From Kiritimatiellia bacterium (lineage in GTDB: Bacteria > Verrucomicrobiota > Kiritimatiellia > CAIVKH01): a stretch of 64,000 bases of DNA. Made by a program: the position numbers and the translations under genes. Positions 1-60,725 of this stretch are shown piece after piece (positions within the stretch are counted from its first letter, which is position 1; every line of letters begins with the position of its first letter). The stretch covers positions 12,180 to 76,179 of the forward strand of contig DAOLDL010000004.1 in assembly GCA_035327305.1 (NCBI GenBank), read 5' to 3'. Under the pieces are notes generated by a model that made no database searches, was not told the origin of the DNA, and was given only the letters and a program-made list of their open reading frames with translations.

Positions 1-652
1 GGTGAGGGGCGAGTGAATGGAAAAACATGACATCGCCCGGCATTAAATCCACTCGTTTAGGCGAAAATCCCTCCAGAAGCGAGGGATCCGTATCCATCGG
101 GGCATCCGGTGTGCCGGGAATGCGCGATTGATGCATGCCGGGATAAATTTCCAAGGCTCCGTTTTTTTCATTTGCCTCATCGATTGCCACCCACACAGAC
201 AGCATTTCTTCGGCCGGTATACCCAGTAACTCCCAATATGGATAATCCTGGTGAACGTCATAACCATAGGTTCCGGGCGGCTTCATGATCAGCTTGTCTT
301 TGAACAATGCCACAGGGCCACCGATCAATGCTTCTGTCGGATTGGTCAATCGCTGATCAGACGCCAAAGCGCTAAATATCGGTGAAAGATCCAGGACAGG
401 GTCCAAACGATCCATGATGGCGCCCAGCGAAAGATGTTTACGACCCGACACGCGGGGATGATCGGTTTTCTGCAATTCCGCTACCAGGCGATCACACTCT
501 GCCCGCCACGACGCGATTTCTTCGGCATGAAAACACCCTTGGAGCAGGGTAAAGCCGGCTTCACGGTAATGCTGAATGTATTTCAAATCTCCAACCGCAC
601 AGGCAGATTCGTTACCGGTTACTACGCGTCCATTCATGGCAGGATCCGACAT
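1..652 (-). CDS. Phytanoyl-CoA dioxygenase (PhyH) family Fe(II)/2-oxoglutarate oxygenase; 3' end is outside the window (partial)
   Basis: I translated the minus strand by hand from ATG at ~652 (a second ATG is at ~637). It stays open to position 1: MSDPAMNGRVVTGNESACAVGDLKYIQHYREAGFTLLQGCFHAEEIASW...KDKLIMKPPGTYGYDVHQDYPYWELLG...WVAIDEANEKNGALEIYPGMH... This shows the PhyH-type HxD motif and overall pattern. It is absent from the ORF track because it has no in-window stop. The track ORF 43..267(-) is in a different frame. Confidence 0.55.
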   Translation of the reverse strand, partial: MSDPAMNGRVVTGNESACAVGDLKYIQHYREAGFTLLQGCFHAEEIASWRAECDRLVAELQKTDHPRVSGRKHLSLGAIMDRLDPVLDLSPIFSALASDQRLTNPTEALIGGPVALFKDKLIMKPPGTYGYDVHQDYPYWELLGIPAEEMLSVWVAIDEANEKNGALEIYPGMHQSRIPGTPDAPMDTDPSLLEGFSPKRVDLMPGDVMFFHSLAPH

Positions 653-49644: not shown

Positions 49645-49754
49645 AATATAATCGCACAGTAAATCAGAGAATATGCATTCGCAAGCGCAGAAAAGCTTGA
49701 ACGAGCAAGCTTGTTCTTGCCCAATTCAATTCAGCATGCGTTAATACATCCACT

Positions 49755-50564
49755 TTGCAAATTCAAACCGACAAACCCATTGCTTTTTTCGACATCGAGG
49801 CCACCGGGATTAATTTCCGAACCGACCGCATCATCGAACTGGCCATCGTAAAAATCCACCCCGACGGCTCAAGGGAAACCCACGAGTTTTTATTCAACCC
49901 GGAGCGACCCATTCCCGCCGAGGCATCCGCGGTCCACGGCATCAACGACGAAGATGTGAAGGATTGCCCCACCTTCAGCCAAACCGCGCCTCAAATCGCC
50001 GCGATTCTTCACGATTGCGACCTGGGCGGTTACAATGTCATTCATTACGACATCCCCCTACTGCAGGCGGAATTCGAACGCGTTGCATTACCCTTTGACA
50101 TAGAAGGCCGGCGAATTGTTGATGCCCAGAAAATATTTCATAAAAAGGAGCCGCGCGACCTGACTGCGGCCCTGGCGTTTTATTGCAATGACCAGCACAC
50201 CGGCGCACACGGGGCTTTAAGCGACGTCGAGGCGACCATCCGGGTTCTGGACGGTCAGATGCACAGATACCTGGACCTTCCCCGCAACATTGATTCCCTT
50301 TCGGAATTCTGTGATCAACGGGACCCGAGTTGGGCCGACCGAAAAGGGCGGTTTAAATGGGTAAACGGGGAGTTGATCATCAATTTCGGCAAAAAACAGG
50401 GCAAATTATTGAAAGAAATTGCTCGTTATGAACCCAGCTTCCTGCGTTGGATGATCACCAGCAGTTTTCCACCCGATGTTACCGCCATTGCCCGCAACGC
50501 CCTCGAGGGTAAGTTTCCCGAACCTCCCTTACCCAGCGGAAGCACGGCAAATGGGGACCAATGA
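49755..50564 (+). CDS. DEDDh 3'-5' exonuclease (DnaQ-like) with C-terminal extension
   Basis: Exo I FFDIEATG, Exo II HGINDEDV...YNVIHYDIPLL, Exo III HGALSDVEAT. TTG start per the ORF track. Confidence 0.65.
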   Translation: MQIQTDKPIAFFDIEATGINFRTDRIIELAIVKIHPDGSRETHEFLFNPERPIPAEASAVHGINDEDVKDCPTFSQTAPQIAAILHDCDLGGYNVIHYDIPLLQAEFERVALPFDIEGRRIVDAQKIFHKKEPRDLTAALAFYCNDQHTGAHGALSDVEATIRVLDGQMHRYLDLPRNIDSLSEFCDQRDPSWADRKGRFKWVNGELIINFGKKQGKLLKEIARYEPSFLRWMITSSFPPDVTAIARNALEGKFPEPPLPSGSTANGDQ

Positions 50565-50623: not shown

Positions 50624-51406
50624 TTATGAAAATCGGTATTCGTCGATCAGGCGTTTTTCGGTTCCACCTTCGCCGATGATCTTGGCGACTACTTCCACAT
50701 AAGGCTGGATGGTGTTGGACTTGAGCTTGTGGCGCAGGAGGTCGTCGACCTGGAATACGCCGGCGGAATTGGCCATATTGACCGTGATGCGCACCGGATG
50801 TTTTTCTCCTTTGTCGATTTTAACACTGTCAATGGCCAACGCCGATACGGAGTGGATATTGACCTGGCCCTGCTTGAAGGGAATACGTGAACGCCCTTCC
50901 GACATGTCGGTCGCGTCGGCAACCTTGAGTGCGCCGGCTTCTATGGTCAGACAACGTTCATCCGCATCGTGGGCGATGATAGCATGCAAGACTTCCGCCA
51001 CCATGATGGTCAATTGAGGATCCTGATAAATTTTGCCAAGCAATTGTCGCGCCTTCGGATAGGCCAACCAAAGACTGTAGCGCTCGTGTTGATCTCGATG
51101 GACGCTGATACCCAGATCGTGCATGCACGCGGCGGTAACCACCACCAACTCACCGTCTTCGGCAGTCATGCCATAATTCTTCACAATGCTTGGTTCCACG
51201 CCGCCTTCAACCAGCAAACGATAAATCCTCAAGGCGGAATTGGCGACGATCCGAATGTGAACTTCGCCGTGATCGCTGATACCGCAACGGTCCACGGCAT
51301 TAATGTTCGCACACTTCCACATTTGGTTTAATTCGACATCGGCTTGAATCGCATCGACCAATTGTTTTAACTTGGCATTATCTTTGACTGGTATGTTGAA
51401 ACTCAT
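50624..51406 (-). CDS. HD-superfamily metal-dependent phosphohydrolase
   Basis: H...HD motif (VTAACMHDLGISV) and downstream His/Asp (HAIIAHDADE). Confidence 0.5.
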   Translation of the reverse strand: MSFNIPVKDNAKLKQLVDAIQADVELNQMWKCANINAVDRCGISDHGEVHIRIVANSALRIYRLLVEGGVEPSIVKNYGMTAEDGELVVVTAACMHDLGISVHRDQHERYSLWLAYPKARQLLGKIYQDPQLTIMVAEVLHAIIAHDADERCLTIEAGALKVADATDMSEGRSRIPFKQGQVNIHSVSALAIDSVKIDKGEKHPVRITVNMANSAGVFQVDDLLRHKLKSNTIQPYVEVVAKIIGEGGTEKRLIDEYRFS

Positions 51407-51451: not shown

Positions 51452-52339
51452 ATGCGGTTAAATAGTCCATCCTATTGGCTGACCGGCCTGATATTGACGT
51501 TGGGACTGATGACCCTTGCCCTCGCCCAGACCAGCCACACGGTCCGCACCGGCGAAACGCTTGATGCCATCGGCAAGCAATACGGGGTTTCCCCATCCGC
51601 CATCGCCCGGGCCAATGAAATTGACAATCCGAACCGGATTCGCACCGGCATGGAGTTGAAAATTCCCGACGGCGCCAACGCTCCGGTTCGTTACGAAGTT
51701 AAACCCGGCGATACGCTGGGGTCGATCGCCGTGGCTCATGGAACCACGACCAAAGCATTGATTGAGGCAAATGAAATATCCCGCCCCGACAGACTCCGGG
51801 TAGGCGACAGCCTGGTAATTCCCTCCGGGGGCAAATCTCCGGTGGTGGCGCGCCATCCACTTCCCGAATCCATGCGGCGCCTGCTGGACGCCACTCCGGT
51901 CACTCCGAACAAATGGCGTTACATCGTGATCCATCACAGCGCAACCGCCAACGGATCCCTGCAAGGAATGGAAATGTACCACCGCCAGAAGCGGCGCATG
52001 GAAAACGGGCTGGCCTATCACTTCGTCATCGGCAACGGACGCGGGATGCCGGACGGCCAAATTGAAATCGGAAATCGGTGGAAGCGTCAGATCAAGGGCG
52101 GGCATCTGGCCAACGACGCCATGAACGAAGTTGCCATCGGCATTTGCCTCATTGGAAATTTCGAGGTTGATCGCCCCACCGAAGCACAAATGCGAAGCCT
52201 GTATGCGCTGGTTTCCTATTTGAACCGGCGTTGCAATATTCCAAAAAGCCGGGTGCAAACCCATCAGCAGATCAACACAAAACCGACGGCATGCCCCGGT
52301 AAACTTTTTCCGTCCCAGACATTTATTCGCAATTTGTAA
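51452..52339 (+). CDS. N-acetylmuramoyl-L-alanine amidase (Amidase_2/AmpD-PGRP type) with two LysM domains
   Basis: Signal peptide. LysM x2 (HTVRTGETLDAIGKQYGVSPSAIARAN; YEVKPGDTLGSIAVAHGTT). Amidase_2 Zn ligands (YHFVIGNG...HLANDAMNEVAIGICLIGNF...TACPG). Confidence 0.8.
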   Translation: MRLNSPSYWLTGLILTLGLMTLALAQTSHTVRTGETLDAIGKQYGVSPSAIARANEIDNPNRIRTGMELKIPDGANAPVRYEVKPGDTLGSIAVAHGTTTKALIEANEISRPDRLRVGDSLVIPSGGKSPVVARHPLPESMRRLLDATPVTPNKWRYIVIHHSATANGSLQGMEMYHRQKRRMENGLAYHFVIGNGRGMPDGQIEIGNRWKRQIKGGHLANDAMNEVAIGICLIGNFEVDRPTEAQMRSLYALVSYLNRRCNIPKSRVQTHQQINTKPTACPGKLFPSQTFIRNL

Positions 52340-52398: not shown

Positions 52399-55005
52399 TC
52401 ATGCTTCGGGCGGCGATTCGTAGTCGGCCACGGCTTTCAACATTTCCTGCACGGAAGCGGGTTTGATTCCGAGCCGGCGATTGCGATGACCGATCTTGAA
52501 CGCGATCAGCCATTGCTTAAACAATACAGCATACGCATCCATCAATCCATTGCGGGGATCATAGATGTTGGTGGATTCAGAGGAAACGCCGTTAAGTTCA
52601 ATGGCCTTGAATCCTTTTCCGGCGCGCAAATCATCGAGGGATTCCGCGCGGATGTCAAACCGTCCGAGGTAAAACCCATCGAAGCCCTGGGCAAGCTCAT
52701 CCATCGCACGCTCAAGCTCAATGGTTTTGATCCAACGTCCGTCCTGAAACAAGGAACCCCGGCAATGCGTTCCCAATTCAACCAACTGTATCATTTCATC
52801 CTCAACCGGGACCATATACCGGCGCTCATCCATCTGCCGGAGATAAAACGGTGCCATGGCAACCGCGCGGGGATCTTTCAGCACAAGATGCTCGAGGTCA
52901 TGCTTTCCATTCCCGATCACGATCGGGAATCTCTTCTCCGTAATGGAAAAAATATGGCCGCGTGGTTGCCCGGGCATTCGATAATAGAAAATTCCGAATT
53001 CAAAGCCCGGCACGTATTCCTGAACCAGGGTATCCGGCCGTGGTGTTTCAAAGTATGCACGCAAAGCATTTTCATTCCGGATGACGGCAACACCTGCCCC
53101 CCGTTGGCCGACATCCGGTTTTAACACTACGGGAAATGATAATTGATTCCGGTCAAAAAAATGAATAACTGCGCGTTCCTTTTGTTGCGACGTCAAGTCG
53201 GCCGCAATCAACTCCGTGCGTGCGATCAAATCCCGACGCTCTTTAAACCCATCCAGCATTGCTTTTTTTGATTCGCCGATAAACCCGCCGAGACGAATGG
53301 CCGGATTGGCGGCAGTAAACAATGCGACACTTCGGTACCGAAGACCCAGCAGAAGAATGTAGCCAAGCACCGGGGGATAAATGATCCATTGCGGCCAGTA
53401 TTCCCAGCGCGTCAGGCGCCGCCAGCGCGACAACAGCAAACGGCGGCCCTTGAAACTGAACAATGGAATGACGATTTTGAACAACAGCCACAACAGCAAC
53501 GCCGTGGCGGTGATTGCCGCCAGCGTATATAATTTATAAGTAAACAAGGTCTCAATGATCTGCTGGCCGATTTTCATCGACAGCCATACGAGCAAAGGCG
53601 CCCAAATCAGACCCGCGAATAAAAAGAAAATGAAAAACACCCAGAATTTTGTGTGAAGCATGCCGGCGGTAAAAAATGTGGGAAATCGACTGCCGGGCAC
53701 AAAACGGCTAAGCAAAACCACCACCGGTCCTTTTCGCGCAAACCACTTGGAACTCTCACGAATGGCCGCCTCCTTGATCATCCACTTAAGAGGCGGTTTT
53801 CGAAGCGCCGACTTTCCGAAATGATGGCCGGCCCAGAACAACAACAAGTCGCCCACAAATATTCCGAGAAATGCCCCGCCCGCCGCAGTCCAGTAGTCAA
53901 TCACGCCCTGGGTGGCCAACAAACCCGCGCTGATGCAGGCAAGGTCCTCGCTGATCAGCGTCGCAAGCGCAATCAGCAGAATCATGACCACCATGGCCAC
54001 CCCCACCGCCTTGTCGACATCCGCCGGATTGAACGGTTGCACGGATTTTTCCACACGCGACGGATCGGCATTTTCCCGGACCACGGCACGCCCGCCTTGC
54101 ACAAGCGCGATGAAATCATGAATCAACCCGTTCACTTGCTCCGTTTTTTTGAATGCGATCTTGTGTCCGCCCCGGAGCATGGCCAATTCGCTTTGCGGAA
54201 CCAGGCGTCTTGATTCCTGCGCGGTTCCCGGCGGCACAAGAATATCGTCACGACCGTGGATCAACAACATGGGGCCGGGATAACTTTTAAGGTAATCACG
54301 GTGGGGTCGCAGGTCGGAATCGAAAAAGTTCCGCGCATACGCGGTGTTTAACATCATGGTATCGAGCAGGCCGAAATGCGGAATCAATATGGCCGCGGCG
54401 CCGATGGCGGTAAGTTGCAACCCGTGCAAGGCTCGGTTCAATCCATAAATCCCCAACAACTCGAATTCCTGCACACCAATGGAGGACACCAGCGTCAGCG
54501 ATGCGATTTGATCCGGGGCCTGTTTCTGCAATTCAAGCGCAACGCCCCCGCCCTGGCTGTATGCCACGACATGCGCATTGGAAACCCCCAGAATATTCAT
54601 CAGGCGATGCAGGTAGGCGGCCATTGCGGTAAAGGAATAATCGGGGATCGTACGCGTTGAACGCCCGAACCCCGGAAGTTCCGGCGCAACAACCCGGTAG
54701 CGCCCGCCCATGGATTCCACAAGAAATCGCAGGTCGGACGATCTCATCGGGCTTCCGTGAATCAATACGACGACCGGCGCATCCGAATTTCCCGGCGGAC
54801 GCAGGTCGTGATACACCATTTCCACGCGCCCATCCTGAAAATTCCCCTCCGCAAATTCCGGTAGCGTTACCACCTGGTGATGCAATTGCGGTCGGGCATG
54901 ATGACCCTGTTGATGACGAACCACATTGGAGGCAATCAACAGGAGCGCATAAATCAGCAACTTGTAACGTCGCGGAAGTAGGCGCTTTTTCTTCATGGTT
55001 GTCAT
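52399..55005 (-). CDS. Tri-domain membrane protein: alpha/beta hydrolase - DedA/VTT (SNARE-associated) domain - ATP-grasp ligase
   Basis: N-terminal a/b-hydrolase (VVVLIHGSP...AYSQGGGVALE nucleophile elbow...HGRDD). Central DedA (LISEDLACISAGLLATQGVIDYWTAAGGAFLGIFVGDLLLFWAGHHFG). C-terminal ATP-grasp (VVLKPDVGQRGAGVAVI...AIELNGVSSES). Confidence 0.7.
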   Translation of the reverse strand: MTTMKKKRLLPRRYKLLIYALLLIASNVVRHQQGHHARPQLHHQVVTLPEFAEGNFQDGRVEMVYHDLRPPGNSDAPVVVLIHGSPMRSSDLRFLVESMGGRYRVVAPELPGFGRSTRTIPDYSFTAMAAYLHRLMNILGVSNAHVVAYSQGGGVALELQKQAPDQIASLTLVSSIGVQEFELLGIYGLNRALHGLQLTAIGAAAILIPHFGLLDTMMLNTAYARNFFDSDLRPHRDYLKSYPGPMLLIHGRDDILVPPGTAQESRRLVPQSELAMLRGGHKIAFKKTEQVNGLIHDFIALVQGGRAVVRENADPSRVEKSVQPFNPADVDKAVGVAMVVMILLIALATLISEDLACISAGLLATQGVIDYWTAAGGAFLGIFVGDLLLFWAGHHFGKSALRKPPLKWMIKEAAIRESSKWFARKGPVVVLLSRFVPGSRFPTFFTAGMLHTKFWVFFIFFLFAGLIWAPLLVWLSMKIGQQIIETLFTYKLYTLAAITATALLLWLLFKIVIPLFSFKGRRLLLSRWRRLTRWEYWPQWIIYPPVLGYILLLGLRYRSVALFTAANPAIRLGGFIGESKKAMLDGFKERRDLIARTELIAADLTSQQKERAVIHFFDRNQLSFPVVLKPDVGQRGAGVAVIRNENALRAYFETPRPDTLVQEYVPGFEFGIFYYRMPGQPRGHIFSITEKRFPIVIGNGKHDLEHLVLKDPRAVAMAPFYLRQMDERRYMVPVEDEMIQLVELGTHCRGSLFQDGRWIKTIELERAMDELAQGFDGFYLGRFDIRAESLDDLRAGKGFKAIELNGVSSESTNIYDPRNGLMDAYAVLFKQWLIAFKIGHRNRRLGIKPASVQEMLKAVADYESPPEA

Positions 55006-55024
55006 GCCTGAACCTTACAAAACC

Positions 55025-55810
55025 TCAAGTTACATCAATCGTATATTCACGACATTCTTCCGGCAACTCAACGTCAACGCCGGCGGCATCCTGAAGCGAC
55101 TTGGCCATTTGTTTCAACGCTTCATCCGAATAATGCGGATACAAATGAACCGGCATCATCAAACCCGGACGCGTGTCTTTTACAAATTTCGCCACCGGTC
55201 CGAAGCAGGCGTGCCGTTGATTTTCCGACTCCTGTTCGGCGGCATCTGCGTCGTTTAACCATAGCTCATGCAATAAAACCTTTACGCCACGCACCTGCGA
55301 CGCATTTTCCGGCATGACCACGGTGTCGGTAACGTAGGCCAGCGCGTCGTCGAACTTCAGCCCTACGGATCCTCCCGGATGCTTTTGGGGCCATACCTGG
55401 ACGTCATGTCCGCCGATCCTCACCTTGGCCTGATTGAGCGAATGAATTTGGATGGTGGTTTTATCGAGTAGATAGGAATTAAGCGGCGGTGAAAAATACC
55501 GCCTGATTGCCTCCACCGGGTCGGCCTGGATGTACGGGCACACCGGCGCATGTATGTGAAGCGTTCCCTTCCGCCACGCGGTGAAGGCGTAGTACAATCC
55601 TACACTGTGGTCGACATGATAGTGGGAAAGCAATAAATGAAGTTCGCGATAAGGTTCCAACAAGGCCTGAATCGACGGCTCATGCAGGCGAGCGGCGCCG
55701 GTCCCGGCATCCAGCATAAATGCGGCATCTTCGAATAACACAAGAAAGCAGGAGGTATGCCGTCCGTTGATCGGAAGATAGCCGTTGATACCCAGAGGAA
55801 TCAGTCTCAT
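55025..55810 (-). CDS. MBL-fold metallo-hydrolase
   Basis: HYHVDH metal-binding motif with downstream His/Asp ligands. 4-nt overlap with the panB stop. 20 nt upstream of the tri-domain gene. Confidence 0.75.
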   Translation of the reverse strand: MRLIPLGINGYLPINGRHTSCFLVLFEDAAFMLDAGTGAARLHEPSIQALLEPYRELHLLLSHYHVDHSVGLYYAFTAWRKGTLHIHAPVCPYIQADPVEAIRRYFSPPLNSYLLDKTTIQIHSLNQAKVRIGGHDVQVWPQKHPGGSVGLKFDDALAYVTDTVVMPENASQVRGVKVLLHELWLNDADAAEQESENQRHACFGPVAKFVKDTRPGLMMPVHLYPHYSDEALKQMAKSLQDAAGVDVELPEECREYTIDVT

Positions 55811-56625
55811 GACCGGTCACTTGGGCGGTATGTATATTCATCCGATGGAAATTGCCCGGATTCCACTTCGGCACGATATTCTGAAACAGCCTTGTTGATG
55901 GCTTCACCCAAACGCGCATATTGCTTGGCAAATTTCGGGACATGACCACTGGTCAGTCCAAGTACATCGTGAATGACCAGTACCTGGCCATCGCATTGCG
56001 CTCCGGCTCCGATGCCGATGGTGGGGATTTCGATTGCGGCGGTGATTTGCGCCGCGACATCGGGCGGCATGCCTTCCAATACAACCGCAAATGCACCAGC
56101 TTCGGCAACTGCGTGCGCATCTTCAAGCAGTCGTTGCGCATCACGTTCGGTTTTGCCCTGTACCCGGTAACCACCGGCGGATTTCACGCTTTGCGGAAGA
56201 ATACCAATGTGCCCGAGCACGGGAATTCCGTTGGATGTCAAAGCCTCGATGGTCGGGGCGCGCACCACGCCGCCCTCCAACTTCACCGCATCGGCGCCCG
56301 CCTCCTTCAAACAACGTCCGGCGCTTAACAACGCTTGTTCGAGCGAGGCCTGATACGTCATGAACGGCAGATCGGTTATTACCAGCGCATTTTTCGCGCC
56401 GCGGACAACGGCGGCGGTGTGATGTATAATTTGATCAAGGGTGACCGGCAGGGTGGAGTCGTAACCCAGCATGGTCATGCCCAGGGAGTCGCCGACAAGT
56501 ATACAGGGGATGCCCGCTTCGTCCAAGAGCCGGGAAAAGGTGAAATCACCCGCGGTCAGCATGGCGATTTTTTGTTTGCCTTTCAGCGCCCTGATTCGTG
56601 GCGCAGTCCATTTGATATTTGTCAT
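55807..56625 (-). CDS. panB: 3-methyl-2-oxobutanoate hydroxymethyltransferase
   Basis: KIAMLTAGDFTFSRLLDEAGIPCILVGDSLGMTMLGYDSTLPVTLDQIIHHTAAV is canonical KPHMT. Confidence 0.92.
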   Translation of the reverse strand: MTNIKWTAPRIRALKGKQKIAMLTAGDFTFSRLLDEAGIPCILVGDSLGMTMLGYDSTLPVTLDQIIHHTAAVVRGAKNALVITDLPFMTYQASLEQALLSAGRCLKEAGADAVKLEGGVVRAPTIEALTSNGIPVLGHIGILPQSVKSAGGYRVQGKTERDAQRLLEDAHAVAEAGAFAVVLEGMPPDVAAQITAAIEIPTIGIGAGAQCDGQVLVIHDVLGLTSGHVPKFAKQYARLGEAINKAVSEYRAEVESGQFPSDEYTYRPSDRS

Positions 56626-56648: not shown

Positions 56649-57170
56649 TTACCAGATGTCAGGCAATTTGACCACTTCTTCGCCTGCGGGCAGGCCGGCC
56701 AGGAGATCTTCAATGGTCAGATTGGTGGTCGCCAACACCAGTTCAGGCCTCACTTCGGCCAATGGTTGGAGAACGAATCGACGTTTGAGACACTGGGGAT
56801 GAGGCAATTTGAGCGTCGGAGAGTCGATGATCAGCGAGCCGGCGTATAACATATCGATGTCCAAAGGACGCGGCGCGTACTGGTCCTCGGTGCGGCGGCG
56901 ACCGATTCCCGCTTCAATTTTCATCATTTCCTGTTGCATGGAAAGCAAAGGGATCGGACAAAGTATCACCAGCACCGCATTGATGAACTTCAGATGCCGG
57001 TATTCTTCTTTGACGCCAATCGGTTCGGTTTCATACAAACTGCTTTGTTCGAGAAACTCAACGCCGGGCAACGCCAGAACCGAAGCCTTGGCGGCTTTCA
57101 GGTTGGCAATCCGGTCGCCCTGATTGGAGCCAAAACCCAGACCTATTTCCAATATGCGTGTTTCGCTCAC
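56649..57170 (-). CDS. folK: 2-amino-4-hydroxy-6-hydroxymethyldihydropteridine pyrophosphokinase
   Basis: IGLGSNQGDR-type N-terminus and YETEPIG. HPPK length (173 aa). Confidence 0.85.
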   Translation of the reverse strand: MSETRILEIGLGFGSNQGDRIANLKAAKASVLALPGVEFLEQSSLYETEPIGVKEEYRHLKFINAVLVILCPIPLLSMQQEMMKIEAGIGRRRTEDQYAPRPLDIDMLYAGSLIIDSPTLKLPHPQCLKRRFVLQPLAEVRPELVLATTNLTIEDLLAGLPAGEEVVKLPDIW

Positions 57171-57994
57171 AGGCCGAGCACATCCTTCATTGAATAAAGT
57201 CCCGGCTTGCGTCCAACCACCCAGGCGGCGGCCCGCAATGCTCCAATGGCAAACGTATCGCGACTGGTCGCCCGGTGCGAAAATTCAATGCTTTCGCCAT
57301 TGGTGGCGAAGATGACCGTATGATCGCCGACAAAATCGCCGCCGCGCACCGCATGAAATCCGATTTCCCGTTCAGGGCGAATTTCCTTGCTGACGCCTTC
57401 ACGGCCATGCACGGAAACCTCGTCGAGATTCCAATCCAGCCCTTTGGCGACGGCCTTGCCGAGTCCGAGGGCCGTGCCACTCGGCGAATCCTTTTTCAAC
57501 CGGTGGTGACGCTCCACGATTTCCACGTCGTACCCTTTTCCCTTCAAGGCCCGCGCCGCCTCCTCCAGCAACACGAACAACAGGTTGACGCCCAAACTCA
57601 TGTTTGGCGCCATCACCACCGGAATCATTTGCGCCGCTTTTTCCACTTCCGCTTGTTGCTCGGCGGACAAACCGGTGGTTCCCACCACCCAGGCCTTTTT
57701 CCATTCCGCCAGTCGCGCGGCGTTACCGGACGTTCCCTGATGCGATGTGAAATCAATCACGACATCCACCGACGTTGCGGCTTCGGCAAGATCGGTCTTC
57801 AACAAAATTCCCGGCGCCACTTCCTTGTTGCGGTCAGGGTGATCCCACAGATCAATGGCCGTGCCGAGACGAAGCCCCGGCACCGCGCCATCCATCAGAC
57901 ATCGGATGATGGTTTTGCCCATCCTTCCGCCTGCGCCGAGAACAGCCACACCGGCTTCAGCATGTTGTGAATCAGAAGACAAAGTACACCTCAC
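57167..57994 (-). CDS. dapB: 4-hydroxy-tetrahydrodipicolinate reductase
   Basis: VAVLGAGGRMGKTII NAD(P)-binding motif and a DapB C-terminal domain. 4-nt overlap with folK. Confidence 0.9.
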   Translation of the reverse strand: MRCTLSSDSQHAEAGVAVLGAGGRMGKTIIRCLMDGAVPGLRLGTAIDLWDHPDRNKEVAPGILLKTDLAEAATSVDVVIDFTSHQGTSGNAARLAEWKKAWVVGTTGLSAEQQAEVEKAAQMIPVVMAPNMSLGVNLLFVLLEEAARALKGKGYDVEIVERHHRLKKDSPSGTALGLGKAVAKGLDWNLDEVSVHGREGVSKEIRPEREIGFHAVRGGDFVGDHTVIFATNGESIEFSHRATSRDTFAIGALRAAAWVVGRKPGLYSMKDVLGL

Positions 57995-58014: not shown

Positions 58015-58881
58015 TCAGATAATTCCGGCGGCGGTCAGCGTTTGCTTCAGCCGCGCCTTGAGTGCGTCAGACATCTCGCACAAAGGCAGACGATAAATTT
58101 CCTCGATGCGCCCCATCATTGCGAGCGCCGCCTTGACCGGAACCGGATTGGTTTCGATGAACAAATCCGTGAACACCTTGTAGTACTGGTAATGAATCCG
58201 CCGGGCTTCATCCCAACGTCCGGCCAGCGCCGCCGACACCAGGCGGGACACTTCCGCCGGAATGATATTCGATGCCACACTGATCACACCGACACCGCCC
58301 AACGCCATCATCGGTAACGTGAGCGCGTCATCGCCCGACAAAATTTCAATATCGCACACACTGCGAATCTGGCTGACGCGGTCAGCGCTTCCGCCCGCTT
58401 CCTTGATGGAGACGACATGCGGATGCTTCGATAATTCCGCCACAACATCGACGGGAATATCGCGCCCGGCTCGTCCCGGAACATTATACAGAACCACGGG
58501 AAGACCGAGATCGGCCACCGCGCTGAAATGCCGGATCAACCCTTCGCGGCTGGGCTTGTTATAATAAGGGGTGACTTGCAATGTCGCGTCGGCGCCGGCC
58601 GCCTTCGCATGCCGCGTCAATTCGATCGCCTCGTCCGTGGAATTCGCCCCTGTTCCGGCGATAACCTTGATACGCTTTTTGCAGATATTAACCGCGGCCT
58701 CGATGACACGATTGTGCTCGTCATAATTTAATGTAGGCGACTCGCCTGTCGTGCCGACCGGAACGATGCCGACAACCCCGCCCTCGATCTGGAAATCAAT
58801 CAATTCCCGGAACCGGACCAGATCGACTTTACCGCTTCGATCAAACGGCGTTACAATAGCTGTATATGTACCCTCTAACAT
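58015..58881 (-). CDS. dapA: 4-hydroxy-tetrahydrodipicolinate synthase
   Basis: AIVTPF...VGTTGESPTL and the Schiff-base Lys region. First ATG at ~58881 (MLEGTYTAIVTPF). The track ORF extends to a TTG at 58944. Confidence 0.9.
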   Translation of the reverse strand: MLEGTYTAIVTPFDRSGKVDLVRFRELIDFQIEGGVVGIVPVGTTGESPTLNYDEHNRVIEAAVNICKKRIKVIAGTGANSTDEAIELTRHAKAAGADATLQVTPYYNKPSREGLIRHFSAVADLGLPVVLYNVPGRAGRDIPVDVVAELSKHPHVVSIKEAGGSADRVSQIRSVCDIEILSGDDALTLPMMALGGVGVISVASNIIPAEVSRLVSAALAGRWDEARRIHYQYYKVFTDLFIETNPVPVKAALAMMGRIEEIYRLPLCEMSDALKARLKQTLTAAGII

Positions 58882-58906
58882 GATCTCACCTGTCTCCGTC
58901 AAAACT

Positions 58907-58957
58907 TTCCAATCATTGGAAAAAATGGACACTAACTTTTCCAATCATTGGAAAAAA
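58907..58957. promoter_or_regulatory. Two copies of a 19-bp near-perfect palindrome TTTTCCAATCATTGGAAAA spaced ~32 bp apart (putative operator pair) in the dapA / esterase divergent intergenic region
   Basis: Direct read: ...aaaactttccaatcattggaaaaaatggacactaacttttccaatcattggaaaaaagca... Each copy is its own reverse complement apart from the central ATCAT/ATGAT. Confidence 0.4.
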
Positions 58958-59024: not shown

Positions 59025-60725
59025 ATGTACTGCTTTTTGTTGGTTTCATTTGCTTTTTTGATCACCGTTTTCCCGACGTTGGGAAGAAGCCCGGATCGGG
59101 AAATTCTCGGGTTTTCCGTAGCCACCAATGTCGGATTTGGCTTTAACGTTCATGTATTGGGCAATCATCCGGATATCGGGTCTTGGATATCCACCAATGC
59201 CGTGAAGCTTCGCTGGACGGCAGGTAACATTTGGACCGGCCAGGTCGCCGTTCAAAAAGGCACGGAGCTTGAATATAAATATGTTGCGCGGGATGGCTCG
59301 CCTTCGGCGTACACAAACATCAGCAACATTGTCTGGGAATCCGGAGCCAACCGCCAGCGATCGGTACCGGCGGCGGATGATCCTCCTGCGCCTGGAAAAA
59401 CCGTTTATTATTATTCGGCCTGGACCAGCGCGACCCTGCTGGTGATTTCGGAAACCAATTTCCCCGCTTATCCGATGACCCGCATCGGTCCCGGACGAAG
59501 CGAGGGCGAATATCTTTATCGCGCGCAAAATGTCGGCGAAGCCGGCGAATGGTTGGAATTTGTGCCCAACGGCTGGTTTAACAACACGAACTACTGGGAC
59601 AATCCGCCATACGTCGACTTCAACAACAATTACTTCACACCACTTGATGCGTTTATTCTGCAGGATGGCAACATCTACAATTACTGGCCATCCAATGTCG
59701 TCTCCGCGCCCCGGGTGATTTCCAATTTTGTGAATTCAAGCCAAGGTGAAATTACCGGACGCTTGATTCGTATTTACCTGCCACGCGGATATGACAGCCA
59801 CCCGGAGCGCCGTTATCCGGTGCTGTACATGCAGGATGGAACCAACGTTTTTTCGCCGGGCGGAAGTTTCGGATCGTGGGATGCCGACCTGATCGCCACG
59901 CGTGAAATCAGCCAGGGACGCATGAGGGAAACAATCATCGTCGCGATCGACAACATGCCGAATCGCCGCGTCGAATACAATCCCCCCGGCAGTACGTACC
60001 CCACCGAGCCGCCCGGACACGCCGACAAATACCTCAAATTTCTCGCCGACAATGTGCGCCCCACCCTCGATTTCAACTTCCGGACGTTGAACGAACGCCG
60101 CAACACGTTTGTTGGCGGCTCGTCGATGGGCGGTATTTTCAGCGTGTATGCCGGCTACGACACCAATTTATTCGGCGGCATCATCGCCATGTCGCCCGCC
60201 TTCACCCGCGCCACCAACTACATGGCCGCATTGTGGAGTCGGGAAAAAACCCCGATCCGCATTTACATGGACACCGGCTCGGCCGAGGGACAGGTCGGCA
60301 TTACTCCGGGTGGCGATTATTGGGAATCACCCTGGCAGGGATACGATATTTTCCTTTCTCATGGATTCGCGCCCAACCATGACTTGATGATGCGCGTTGG
60401 CCACGGCCATGGCCACAACGAAGCGGCCTGGCGGGCGCGACTTCCCTTTGCTTATCGATTTATTCTGAATGTCCGGGACGAACCAAACCGGATCGCGCAA
60501 AAAGAATGGCCACCGGATGTTTCTGCCATGCCATCACCCGGAATGATGACATTCAACACGCTTCAACACTTCAACTATCAACTTGATGAAAAAACCGGCG
60601 AACAGTGGAATCCCACCGACGTCGTTTATCGCGAAACAAACGCCTGGTCCTCCGCGTTCTCACTAACCATCCCGATCCATCACACGACGGTATGGCATCG
60701 CGTTTCGTGCAGACCGGCTGAATGA
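59025..60725 (+). CDS. Secreted esterase (putative esterase/enterochelin-esterase-like a/b hydrolase) with N-terminal CBM20 starch-binding domain
   Basis: CBM20-like FNVHVLGNHPDIGSWISTNAVKLRWTAGNIWTGQVAVQKGTELEYKYV. Esterase core RIYLPRGYDSHPERRYPVLYMQDG...GGSSMGG. Confidence 0.65.
   Translation: MYCFLLVSFAFLITVFPTLGRSPDREILGFSVATNVGFGFNVHVLGNHPDIGSWISTNAVKLRWTAGNIWTGQVAVQKGTELEYKYVARDGSPSAYTNISNIVWESGANRQRSVPAADDPPAPGKTVYYYSAWTSATLLVISETNFPAYPMTRIGPGRSEGEYLYRAQNVGEAGEWLEFVPNGWFNNTNYWDNPPYVDFNNNYFTPLDAFILQDGNIYNYWPSNVVSAPRVISNFVNSSQGEITGRLIRIYLPRGYDSHPERRYPVLYMQDGTNVFSPGGSFGSWDADLIATREISQGRMRETIIVAIDNMPNRRVEYNPPGSTYPTEPPGHADKYLKFLADNVRPTLDFNFRTLNERRNTFVGGSSMGGIFSVYAGYDTNLFGGIIAMSPAFTRATNYMAALWSREKTPIRIYMDTGSAEGQVGITPGGDYWESPWQGYDIFLSHGFAPNHDLMMRVGHGHGHNEAAWRARLPFAYRFILNVRDEPNRIAQKEWPPDVSAMPSPGMMTFNTLQHFNYQLDEKTGEQWNPTDVVYRETNAWSSAFSLTIPIHHTTVWHRVSCRPAE

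Follow-up and report, generated by a model that had tools for sequence, protein, structure and literature searches.

MprF combines an aminoacyl-phosphatidylglycerol synthase with a flippase and has associated aminoacyl-lipid hydrolases. The protein described here is reminiscent of this system, in which a cytoplasmic head-group enzyme is fused to a lipid translocator and an extracytoplasmic alpha/beta-hydrolase acts on the lipid, but the two are not homologous: MprF relies on aminoacyl-tRNA, has a synthase domain of the GNAT-like kind and carries a flippase that is not of the DedA type, whereas the fusion family would draw its energy from ATP via an acyl-phosphate. No MprF-type aminoacyl-tRNA-dependent synthase domain is present among the Pfam hits of the fusion protein at E ≤ 0.01. 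Pseudomonas aeruginosa PlaF (PDB 6i8w) is a phospholipase A that a single N-terminal helix anchors in the inner membrane. It shares the succession of N-terminal helix and alpha/beta-hydrolase and matches the fusion protein in sequence (E 3.5e-9) as well as in fold; it is, however, a stand-alone protein and one among many comparable esterase matches.

The central domain has its counterpart in the DedA proteins of COG0586 (UptA, YqjA/YghB), with which it shares PF09335, two predicted re-entrant hairpins, three transmembrane (TM) helices, acidic residues at the turn of the first hairpin and an R-x5-R motif at the second. Todor et al. associated this acidic plus two-arginine signature with undecaprenyl-phosphate flippases, and list only PAP2 and rhodanese fusions for COG0586, in contrast to the ATP-grasp and alpha/beta-hydrolase fusion observed here. 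A SCAM study of YqjA indicates that the DedA core starts on the periplasmic side and that the C-terminus is cytoplasmic.

Phosphorus-free amino-acid lipids (ornithine, lysine, glycine and glutamine lipids) occur widely in bacterial membranes and are linked to stress resistance and host signalling. The biochemistry of the ATP-dependent transfer of taurine onto the ornithine-lipid carboxyl, which yields cerilipin, dates from the 1970s, but the reaction lacks a known gene (PMC12971839), and the serine-adding step onto glycine lipid that leads to flavolipin lacks a known enzyme (PMC10191378). Members of the fusion family cluster with homologues of OlsB/OlsA or OlsF, and OlsI illustrates that an alpha/beta-hydrolase can serve aminolipid synthesis. 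Unlike the OlsBA, OlsF and OlsHI pathways and the modifying enzymes OlsC, OlsD, OlsE and OlsG, however, ATP-grasp, DedA and TANGO2 proteins have no place in aminolipid metabolism in a 2026 aminolipid review, which never mentions a flippase or transport.

A three-domain protein at the end of a dapA–panB run

The window, that is the whole 64-kb stretch of DNA that was analysed, carries the fusion gene at the end of a dapA-dapB-folK-panB run (Table 1). The encoded protein is 100% identical to a database entry (P0001) that comes from a Kiritimatiellia MAG and bears the name 'alpha/beta fold hydrolase', and comprises, in order, an anchor helix, an alpha/beta-hydrolase, a DedA/VTT domain and an ATP-grasp. 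The three-domain assignment of the original prediction was correct, and the motifs that it quoted are present, namely A-Y-S150-Q-G-G-G, D254, H281, LKPDVGQRGAGV (K629) and E803-L-N805. The gap between the MBL-fold ORF and the fusion ORF is 19 nt, and the MBL-fold ORF overlaps the panB stop by 4 nt. Between 51300 and 59300, no promoter-like or terminator-like signal exceeds shuffled expectation, and operon membership is therefore argued from spacing and orientation. The window contains no tRNA genes. A convergent LysM-amidase_2 gene is located downstream of the fusion gene.

A functional partnership with the adjacent MBL-fold gene does not survive comparison: an MBL-fold homologue is found near the fusion-family gene in none of 80 related loci (tblastn), and in close relatives the MBL-fold gene always follows panB. 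In two of these (L083 and L084), DinB and TANGO2 lie between the MBL-fold gene and the fusion gene, and in another (L086) the two are separated by about 7 kb of other genes.

Table 1. Positions of the fusion gene, its upstream neighbours and the parts of the encoded protein within the window
Feature	Residues	Position	Strand	Remarks
Whole ORF	1-868	52399..55005	(-)	868 aa, ATG start, stop codon 52399-52401
Predicted N-in signal anchor	1-34	54904..55005	(-)	K/R-rich tail and helix 12-33
Alpha/beta-hydrolase, predicted periplasmic	35-305	54091..54903	(-)	Pfam E 1e-25
DedA/VTT core	336-515	53461..54000	(-)	Pfam VTT E 1.6e-16
DedA hairpin 1	336-365			Turn between helices 336-351 and 353-365 carries E353/D354
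DedA TM	371-401
DedA cytoplasmic amphipathic loop	between TM 371-401 and hairpin 428-449			9 K/R
DedA hairpin 2	428-449			R434/R440 flank turn between helices 428-435 and 440-449
DedA TMs	454-489 and 493-515
Predicted monotopic membrane anchor of ligase	516-596	53218..53460	(-)	Most conserved segment
ATP-grasp central and C-terminal domains, predicted cytoplasmic	597-868	52402..53217	(-)	ATP-grasp fold present
ATP-grasp key residues	K629, Q662/E669, R782, D784, R786, E803, N805
MBL-fold gene		55025..55810	(-)	261 aa; passenger of panB block, outside module
panB		55807..56625	co-oriented with fusion gene	Upstream
folK		56649..57170	co-oriented with fusion gene	Upstream
dapB		57167..57994	co-oriented with fusion gene	Upstream
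dapA		58015..58944	co-oriented with fusion gene	Upstream

A widespread and unannotated family

A total of 681 homologues was found, and the full-length architecture is present in at least 526 species genomes, where it occurs at 44-76% identity in Kiritimatiellia/Verrucomicrobiota, Acidobacteriota, Gemmatimonadota, Calditrichota, KSB1, Rhodothermia, Desulfobacterales and Latescibacterota, with per-domain mean identities of 47-58%. An assembly or sequencing error that joined three separate genes is thereby refuted as the source of the long ORF: hundreds of independently assembled genomes, spread over many phyla, contain the uninterrupted architecture with conserved inter-domain linkers, and the AlphaFold2 model of the full-length protein is confident over the entire chain (pLDDT 90.3, pTM 0.68), leaving the probability of an artefact negligible. 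An exhaustive search with the ATP-grasp yielded 2849 clusters (50% identity) at E ≤ 1e-3 and at least 1165 clusters of the ATP-grasp family (50% identity) at E ≤ 1e-30. The 2849 clusters fall into three size classes, the three-domain proteins, DedA plus ATP-grasp proteins and stand-alone ATP-grasp proteins, of which the two-domain and stand-alone forms are without the hydrolase.

Full-text literature searches returned nothing relevant, either for a fusion of DedA, ATP-grasp and hydrolase or for OlsB with ATP-grasp and DedA with ornithine lipid, although an earlier computational mention of the ATP-grasp clade is possible; database entries for the fusion family carry generic names only. Within the reach of these searches, the family is thus not a described enzyme, as first proposed, but it is common and unannotated rather than rare.

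Conserved residues and predicted topology

Residue conservation, counted over 97 homologues, shows that all three domains keep putative catalytic or transport residues. The alpha/beta-hydrolase has the fold's nucleophile elbow and a Ser150-Asp254-His281 triad, in which Ser150 is conserved in 94 of 97 homologues and Asp254 and His281 in all 97. Its PDB matches, by sequence and by fold, are esterases, haloperoxidases, PhaZ and PlaF, with Foldseek TM-scores against esterases of about 0.7-0.78 (normalised to the target), and it scores 25.9 bits against the OlsI equivalog, below the cut-off of 385. The idea that this domain 'erases' the bond made by the ATP-grasp is not borne out. What the domain resembles are esterases and lipases of a generic kind, PlaF among them.

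The DedA/VTT domain scores 61.4 bits against PF09335 (gathering score 33.9), and Glu353, Asp354, Asp386, Arg434 and Arg440 are conserved in 97/97 homologues. With secondary-structure limits taken from the AlphaFold2 model, re-entrant hairpin 1 carries the acidic residues, and hairpin 2 the two arginines, of the COG0586/UptA-type signature. Its best NCBIfam match is UptA (E 1e-13), with 51.8 bits compared to an equivalog cut-off of 250. This signature suits a phosphate lipid no less than it does a carboxylate lipid. The gene context of the fusion family is that of aminolipids and not of the cell wall, in which it differs from UptA and its COG0586 relatives.

The membrane geometry was derived from secondary structure, hydropathy and charge only, and the topology of the window protein agrees with hydropathy and the positive-inside rule: the hydrolase is predicted to be periplasmic and the ATP-grasp cytoplasmic, with DedA between them. 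This is consistent with the original proposal of a module acting on a lipid from both faces of the membrane. We infer that the anchor helix is N-in and that the ATP-grasp is held at the membrane surface. In the window protein, residues 1-14 include six K/R and the anchor helix has a short hydrophobic core of ~14 residues. Among three-domain homologues (n = 139), 93% have a hydrophobic N-terminal stretch, around which the median net charge is +4 before and +1 after. Of 70 two-domain variants, 17 have an N-terminus that resembles a signal peptide or an anchor, in some cases with a lipoprotein-type signal, in the position of the hydrolase.

With a mean identity of 58%, residues 516-596 head the segments of the fusion protein in conservation and comprise a basic amphipathic helix (518-532), a kinked hydrophobic WEYWP..YPP.. 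stretch (535-558) and an NP..GG..GESK motif. This segment, at which the stand-alone ATP-grasp homologues start exactly, stands in for the usual pre-ATP-grasp N-domain: a Rossmann-like domain is absent from residues 516-596, which form short helices only, partly hydrophobic. The replacement of the N-domain by a predicted membrane-anchor segment argues for an interfacial, membrane-bound substrate. Within the ATP-grasp, the ATP-binding lysine and the Mg2+-binding acidic and E-x-N residues (Lys629, Asp784, Glu803 and Asn805) are retained in 97/97 homologues and Arg786 in 94/97. Against PDB sequences, the best profile match is cyanophycin synthetase 2 (E 7.9e-8), with a common GDG..T...LI segment; the Pfam RimK model gives 21.0 bits (cut-off 21), covering residues 608-665 only, and NCBIfam rimK_fam 22.7 bits (cut-off 143.4). 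By structure, the domain groups with LysX/ArgX, the G domain of cyanophycin synthetase and RimK, carboxylate-amine ligases whose reaction extends a tethered carboxylate, but differs from these in having conserved membrane-proximal helices instead of the N-domain. Ddl and VanA are also among its structural matches.

Aminolipid genes in the neighbourhood

Co-oriented genes within 6 kb upstream of the fusion-family gene were counted by tblastn over 80 loci, revealing OlsA-like neighbours in 45, OlsB-like in 43, DinB in 46 and TANGO2 in 31. In 51 of the 59 loci having more than 3 kb of upstream DNA, one or more of the four is present. Pfam and NCBIfam assign one acyltransferase to Acetyltransf_5/OlsB (132 bits) and the other to PF01553/OlsA (143 bits), with scores that are far below the NCBIfam equivalog cut-offs. 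Adjacency to olsBA is observed in Acidobacteriota, Gemmatimonadota, Rhodothermia and Calditrichota. Stand-alone ATP-grasp genes have similar surroundings, with the order ATP-grasp>OlsB>OlsA in one locus (L087) and in Kangiella (L090), and DinB>TANGO2>ATP-grasp>OlsB>OlsA in a further locus (L088), while in Solimonas soli (L089) the ATP-grasp is near an OlsF-type synthase and a free alpha/beta-hydrolase. An OlsC/LpxO-type hydroxylase is present in one family locus.

None of the six Verrucomicrobiota/Kiritimatiellia loci examined has adjacent OlsB/OlsA, and tblastn detects no OlsB, OlsA, DinB or TANGO2 in the 64-kb window. A direct search of the window with DinB and TANGO2 from L083, a close relative, likewise gave no match. 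The window gene has lost the DinB-TANGO2 pair. A 'DinB' match at 49749-50279 is an artefact of over-extended ORFs from L008, L012 and L031 that run antisense through an exonuclease gene. The proposed lipid role thus gains support from the OlsBA- and OlsF-type neighbourhoods of the family but not from the window, which has no ols genes; with olsBA and DinB-TANGO2 absent, the aminolipid link of the window gene is drawn from its homologues, and the partners that form its substrate are either encoded elsewhere or another carboxylate lipid is used.

A candidate aminolipid ligase, flippase and hydrolase

We suggest, with an even chance of being right, that the fusion protein combines a ligase for aminolipid head groups with a flippase and a lipid hydrolase on the periplasmic side, in a single polypeptide across the inner membrane. 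OlsB/OlsA-type or OlsF-type enzymes would make an acyloxyacyl amino-acid lipid whose head group retains a free carboxylate, which the interfacial ATP-grasp would phosphorylate and couple to an amine (an amino acid or similar) to give a dipeptide-like head group. The COG0586-like DedA domain, in which a pair of arginines may bind the anionic head group, would then move the lipid to the periplasmic leaflet, and the periplasmic serine hydrolase may deacylate, trim or transfer the lipid, although its role is a guess, as are those of DinB and TANGO2 in aminolipid clusters. The ATP-grasp family, linked to OlsBA/OlsF and often fused to DedA, thus offers candidate genes for head-group extension and transport, and cultured hosts are at hand in Kangiella, Solimonas and Acidobacteria bacterium Mor1. 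More tentatively, and with the balance tipped somewhat against it, the family would be the first of the ATP-grasp enzymes to ligate amines onto head groups of membrane lipids, turning OlsBA/OlsF products into dipeptide-like or amine-capped aminolipids. Its DedA domain would be the first flippase dedicated to aminolipids, and with the periplasmic hydrolase one polypeptide would make, flip and process the lipid. Orphan reactions such as the taurine and serine additions would fall to this enzyme class. If true, DedA biology would reach beyond undecaprenyl phosphate and phospholipids, and ATP-grasp chemistry would gain a lipid substrate.

Taken literally, the original scheme of writing, flipping and erasing would have the hydrolase remove the same bond that the ligase makes, on the other side of the membrane, with an unspecified phospholipid or lipid-linked intermediate as substrate; the MBL hydrolase could be added as a further partner. 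The domain content and the two-sided predicted topology are compatible with this, and the MprF synthase/flippase with its secreted or periplasmic aminoacyl-removing alpha/beta-hydrolases provides a precedent. We nevertheless consider it unlikely, given that the MBL gene is missing near the gene in 80/80 loci and is panB-coupled in relatives, that the hydrolase is like esterases and lipases rather than amidases, and that the neighbourhood is specifically aminolipid; moreover, the existence of two-domain and stand-alone forms without the hydrolase indicates that erasure is not integral to the system. An undecaprenyl-phosphate (UndP) or peptidoglycan-precursor substrate, with a UptA-like UndP flippase, a Ddl/MurT-like ATP-grasp extending a lipid-linked stem peptide or glycan by one amino acid, and a periplasmic hydrolase processing the product, would account for UptA as the best NCBIfam match, for the acidic residues and two arginines that are a COG0586 hallmark, for Ddl and VanA among the structural matches and for the convergent LysM-amidase_2 gene. 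This reading is improbable, however, because genes for peptidoglycan or polysaccharides are not among the conserved neighbours over the 80 loci, where the consistent partners are OlsB/OlsA/OlsF-type acyltransferases, because the UptA score is far under its cut-off, and because a LysM-amidase is near the fusion gene in only one of 80 related loci.

Alternatively, the ATP-grasp could act before OlsB in the manner of L-amino-acid ligases, forming a soluble dipeptide or amide that OlsB would then N-acylate, with DedA and the hydrolase only exporting or remodelling the finished lipid. We regard this order of events as having a low probability, as the N-domain for soluble substrates is lost and the most conserved segment, in stand-alone forms too, is an amphipathic helix with a hydrophobic anchor. 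A ligase acting on the lipid head group is instead in line with the nearest relatives of the domain, LysX/ArgX, CphA and RimK, all of which extend tethered carboxylates.

Domain architecture and predicted topology of the fusion

The fusion gene is an ORF of 868 codons without interruption, lying 3' of panB, folK, dapB and dapA, which are encoded on the same strand with tight spacing; promoter and terminator scans around the operon yielded nothing beyond chance level. The original prediction of a single hydrolase-DedA-ATP-grasp ORF with an MBL-fold gene directly upstream is confirmed (Table), as are the catalytic motifs that it quoted. Pfam detects the alpha/beta-hydrolase (E 1e-25) and VTT/DedA (E 1.6e-16) domains, and the RimK-type ATP-grasp segment at a borderline 21.0 bits, equal to the cut-off. 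Among NCBIfam models, the membrane part is matched best by UptA, an undecaprenyl-phosphate transporter (E 1e-13); the C-terminus has weak matches to models for cyanophycin synthetase, archaeal Ddl-like proteins and the RimK family, far under their equivalog cut-offs. It is structure prediction that settles the ATP-grasp identity of residues 516-868 (predicted fold, pLDDT 90.1).

AlphaFold2 models the full chain with confidence (pLDDT 90.3, pTM 0.68), and the membrane part is predicted to follow the DedA pattern, in which two re-entrant hairpins are combined with three transmembrane helices. The DedA domain has both acidic residues and R-x5-R, a signature ascribed by Todor et al. to the COG0586 subfamily of undecaprenyl-phosphate (UndP) flippases. 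An N-terminal hydrophobic stretch is present in 93% of 139 three-domain homologues, with a median net charge of +4 before and +1 after it, which indicates an N-in anchor; in the fusion, Lys and Arg number nine in loop 395-425, seven in loop 515-536 and six in the N-terminal tail. In 17 of 70 two-domain relatives (for example the proteins P0041, P0107, P0130 and P0167), the place of the hydrolase is taken by an N-terminus that resembles a signal peptide or an anchor, sometimes of lipoprotein type. A cysteine-accessibility study of E. coli YqjA found that the DedA core starts on the periplasmic side and that the C-terminus is cytoplasmic. Combined, the charges, anchor helix, two-domain relatives and YqjA experiment predict a periplasmic hydrolase and a cytoplasmic ATP-grasp domain, the latter location being required because the enzyme needs ATP. 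The kinked hydrophobic segment preceding the ATP-grasp domain is flanked by basic residues at both ends and is therefore read as a monotopic anchor that would keep the ligase at the membrane surface.

Features of the fusion protein, the window and related loci (L, loci of related genes)
Feature	Position	Strand	Remark
N-terminal helix	residues 12-33		AlphaFold2 model
Hydrolase	residues 44-303		AlphaFold2 model
Helical hairpin	residues 336-351 / 353-365		AlphaFold2 model; S-E-D at turn
Long helix	residues 371-401		AlphaFold2 model
Amphipathic helix	residues 412-425		AlphaFold2 model
Second hairpin	residues 428-435 / 440-449		AlphaFold2 model; R434 and R440 flanking
Two helices	residues 454-489 and 493-515		AlphaFold2 model
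Basic helix	residues 518-532		AlphaFold2 model
Kinked hydrophobic segment	residues about 535-558		AlphaFold2 model; WEYWP..YPP..
ATP-grasp	residues 597-861		AlphaFold2 model
Exonuclease gene	49755-50564	+
HD-domain gene	50624-51406	-
LysM-amidase_2 gene	51452-52339	+
Fusion gene	52399..55005	-	19 nt 3' of MBL ORF
MBL-to-fusion interval	55006-55024		DinB and TANGO2 there in L083:8658-10000
MBL-fold ORF	55025..55810	-	261 aa; start overlaps panB stop by 4 nt
CBM20-putative esterase gene	59025-60725	+
MBL gene in relatives	L082:1036-1809, L083:7878-8657, L086:558-1337
DinB-fold genes	L006:6142-6675, L083:8740-9273, L087:5416-5982, L089:5472-5990, L090:5302-5826
TANGO2/NRDE genes	L006:6726-7592, L081:449-1207, L083:9261-10004, L088:5204-5986
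YHS-domain genes	L088:8819-9265, L089:7206-7661

Conservation and distribution

Homologues found by protein search number 681, and nearly all of the best 120 are 820-900 aa long with the same architecture and 44-76% identity; one protein of 100% identity, encoded in a Kiritimatiellia MAG, is named only 'alpha/beta fold hydrolase'. At least 526 genomes carry a relative in a scan of GTDB with one genome per species, including Acidobacteriota (Blastocatellia, Pyrinomonadaceae and the isolate Mor1, CP011806, locus L055), Verrucomicrobiota/Kiritimatiellia, Gemmatimonadota, Calditrichota, KSB1, Rhodothermia, Desulfobacterales and Latescibacterota. This distribution, and the recurrence of the same architecture with conserved domains and residues across homologues, rules out an assembly artefact, and with it the artificial joining of three genes that the original prediction had named as a possible refutation. 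The other outcome it had considered, that the architecture would prove common and annotated, holds for the first part but not the second, the database names being generic.

Judged from an alignment of 97 sequences, all domains are conserved to a similar degree (hydrolase 47%, DedA 52%, juxtamembrane segment 58%, ATP-grasp 54%). The putative functional residues are essentially invariant, with Ser150 kept in 94 sequences and D254, H281, E353, D354, D386, R434, R440, K629, D784, E803 and N805 in all 97, and the predicted catalytic equipment is thus conserved in all three domains.

Gene neighbourhood and other architectures

When the ORFs flanking the gene at 80 related loci were clustered de novo and then examined by tblastn, a strongly conserved set of co-oriented genes emerged within 6 kb upstream, consisting of an OlsA-like acyltransferase (PF01553; 45 loci), an OlsB-like N-acyltransferase (PF13444; 43), a DinB-fold protein (46) and a TANGO2/NRDE protein with N-terminal Met-Cys and the NRDE motif (31). 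Among the 59 loci whose upstream DNA exceeds 3 kb, 51 have at least one of the four; the most common order is OlsB>OlsA>DinB>TANGO2>fusion. NCBIfam confirms that the acyltransferases belong to the OlsB (132 bits) and OlsA (143 bits) families, with scores under the equivalog cut-offs. Adjacency of olsBA is found in Acidobacteriota, Gemmatimonadota, Rhodothermia and Calditrichota, and is absent from the Verrucomicrobiota/Kiritimatiellia and Desulfobacterales loci, where only DinB and/or TANGO2 occur. Membership in this cluster gives TANGO2/NRDE, a family of debated biochemical function, a lipid-metabolism context. In all three architectures, the neighbour that accompanies the ATP-grasp most constantly is the DinB-fold protein (about 170-190 aa, with His-rich HxxHxxDHY and HTxHHY motifs), which could possibly perform a metal-dependent step tied to the ligase.

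An exhaustive phmmer search with residues 516-868 gave 2849 clusters (50% identity) at E<=1e-3 and 1165 at E<=1e-30. The best 150 clusters include 66 of three-domain length (over 780 aa), 54 of DedA + ATP-grasp length (421-640 aa) and 20 stand-alone proteins (420 aa or less), and those stand-alone ATP-grasps that were inspected start at the RWEFWP anchor. Their contexts comprise DinB>TANGO2>ATP-grasp>OlsB>OlsA and then an OlsC/LpxO-type hydroxylase (L088), DinB-like>ATP-grasp>OlsB>OlsA (the Kangiella-type loci L087 and L090) and, in Solimonas soli (L089), DinB-like>ATP-grasp, with an OlsF-type bifunctional synthase, a free alpha/beta-hydrolase and an AMP-binding enzyme a few kb away. The Solimonas locus may be the same system in 'unfused' form, in an organism that has been cultured. 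Over several phyla and three architectures, the ATP-grasp is thus associated with aminolipid synthases of two non-orthologous kinds. The ATP-grasp is the conserved module, and its link to aminolipid synthases persists across changes of architecture, which is strong guilt-by-association evidence that it acts in the metabolism of acyloxyacyl aminolipids. At the Solimonas locus (AXDW01000007.1, 1-7101) an AraC regulator is also present near the ATP-grasp, and a YHS-domain protein follows the ATP-grasp/OlsBA genes at two unrelated loci (Table).

Proposed function and alternatives

Each fold in the fusion is already known; for the combination we found no published description. Of the family-specific thresholds tested (RimK, UptA, OlsI), the fusion stays under those of UptA and OlsI and under that of RimK in NCBIfam, its Pfam score for RimK being borderline; the features that it displays are those of superfamily level. 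MprF likewise fuses a head-group enzyme to a flippase, with an extracytoplasmic hydrolase; the logic is the same, but the two systems have no homologous domain in common. Full-text literature searches found no paper on the three-domain architecture, although an earlier computational mention of the ATP-grasp clade is possible, and none that assigns an ATP-grasp or a DedA protein to aminolipid metabolism. The fusions listed by Todor et al. for COG0586 DedA proteins are with PAP2 and rhodanese only.

The ATP-grasp domain has its affinity with enzymes by which an amino acid is joined to a tethered carboxylate, namely that of LysW-Glu (LysX/ArgX), the polymer C-terminus (cyanophycin synthetase) or the S6 C-terminus (RimK), and a GDG..T...LI segment is common to the fusion and cyanophycin synthetase 2 in a profile alignment. 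The fusion has no soluble N-domain before its ATP-grasp and carries instead a conserved predicted membrane anchor. The hydrolase is esterase/lipase-like, with PlaF among its matches. We suggest that an OlsBA-type product would present its free alpha-carboxylate at the membrane surface, where the ATP-grasp would phosphorylate it and then couple an amine; the DedA domain would translocate the aminolipid, and the periplasmic serine hydrolase may deacylate, trim or transfer it. Action of the family in aminolipid metabolism is probable, and this specific head-group-extension scheme is put forward tentatively. The scheme would fit two documented gaps: no gene is known for the ATP-dependent reaction that joins taurine to the carboxyl of ornithine lipid (PMC12971839), nor is the step known that leads from glycine lipid to flavolipin, a Gly-Ser lipid (PMC10191378). 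For both, the family is a candidate link. The finding makes two open questions of bacterial lipid biology directly testable. All functional claims for the fusion are inferential, and its copy in the window stands without the usual partner genes.

A literal reading of the originally envisaged write/flip/erase module on a membrane lipid, with the MBL gene as a further partner, is weakened by the existence of forms without the hydrolase and by tblastn, which found no MBL homologue near the fusion gene at any of the 80 loci. Both the COG0586 signature and the match to UptA hint at a role in UndP or peptidoglycan-precursor metabolism, but the conserved neighbours include no cell-wall gene. Within aminolipid metabolism, the ATP-grasp might work before OlsB on soluble amino acids, an order disfavoured by the predicted interfacial anchoring of the ligase.

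Origin of the arrangement in the window

The MBL gene belongs with panB, to which it is translationally coupled by the 4-nt overlap in the window and in every close relative examined. It has distant full-length similarity to cyclic-nucleotide-degrading phosphodiesterase/Anti-Pycsar Apyc1 and RNase Z models, far under their cut-offs. The loci of the 76%-identical homologue P0002 (L083, L084) read URO-D, amine oxidase and, further on, dapA>dapB>folK>panB>MBL>DinB>TANGO2>fusion, and synteny between the window and L083 extends from URO-D through MBL. At the locus of P0003 (73% identity; L086), about 7 kb of other genes separate panB>MBL from DinB>TANGO2>fusion, whereas the two-domain relative at L082 shows panB>MBL>DedA-ATP-grasp. 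Neither DinB, TANGO2, OlsB nor OlsA was found within the 64-kb window. The DinB-TANGO2 pair has thus been lost or relocated in the window lineage, likewise in the L082 relative, and the adjacency of the MBL and fusion genes is a by-product of this event.

The exonuclease, HD-domain and LysM-amidase_2 block is located 3' of the fusion gene in the window and upstream in the relative L003, and the exonuclease gene also lies upstream in L008, L012 and L031; the differing position of the block indicates local rearrangement around the fusion gene. Elsewhere in the window, a CBM20 starch-binding domain is fused to a putative esterase; the same position in L083 is occupied by a DUF3466 gene, which is encoded on the other strand.
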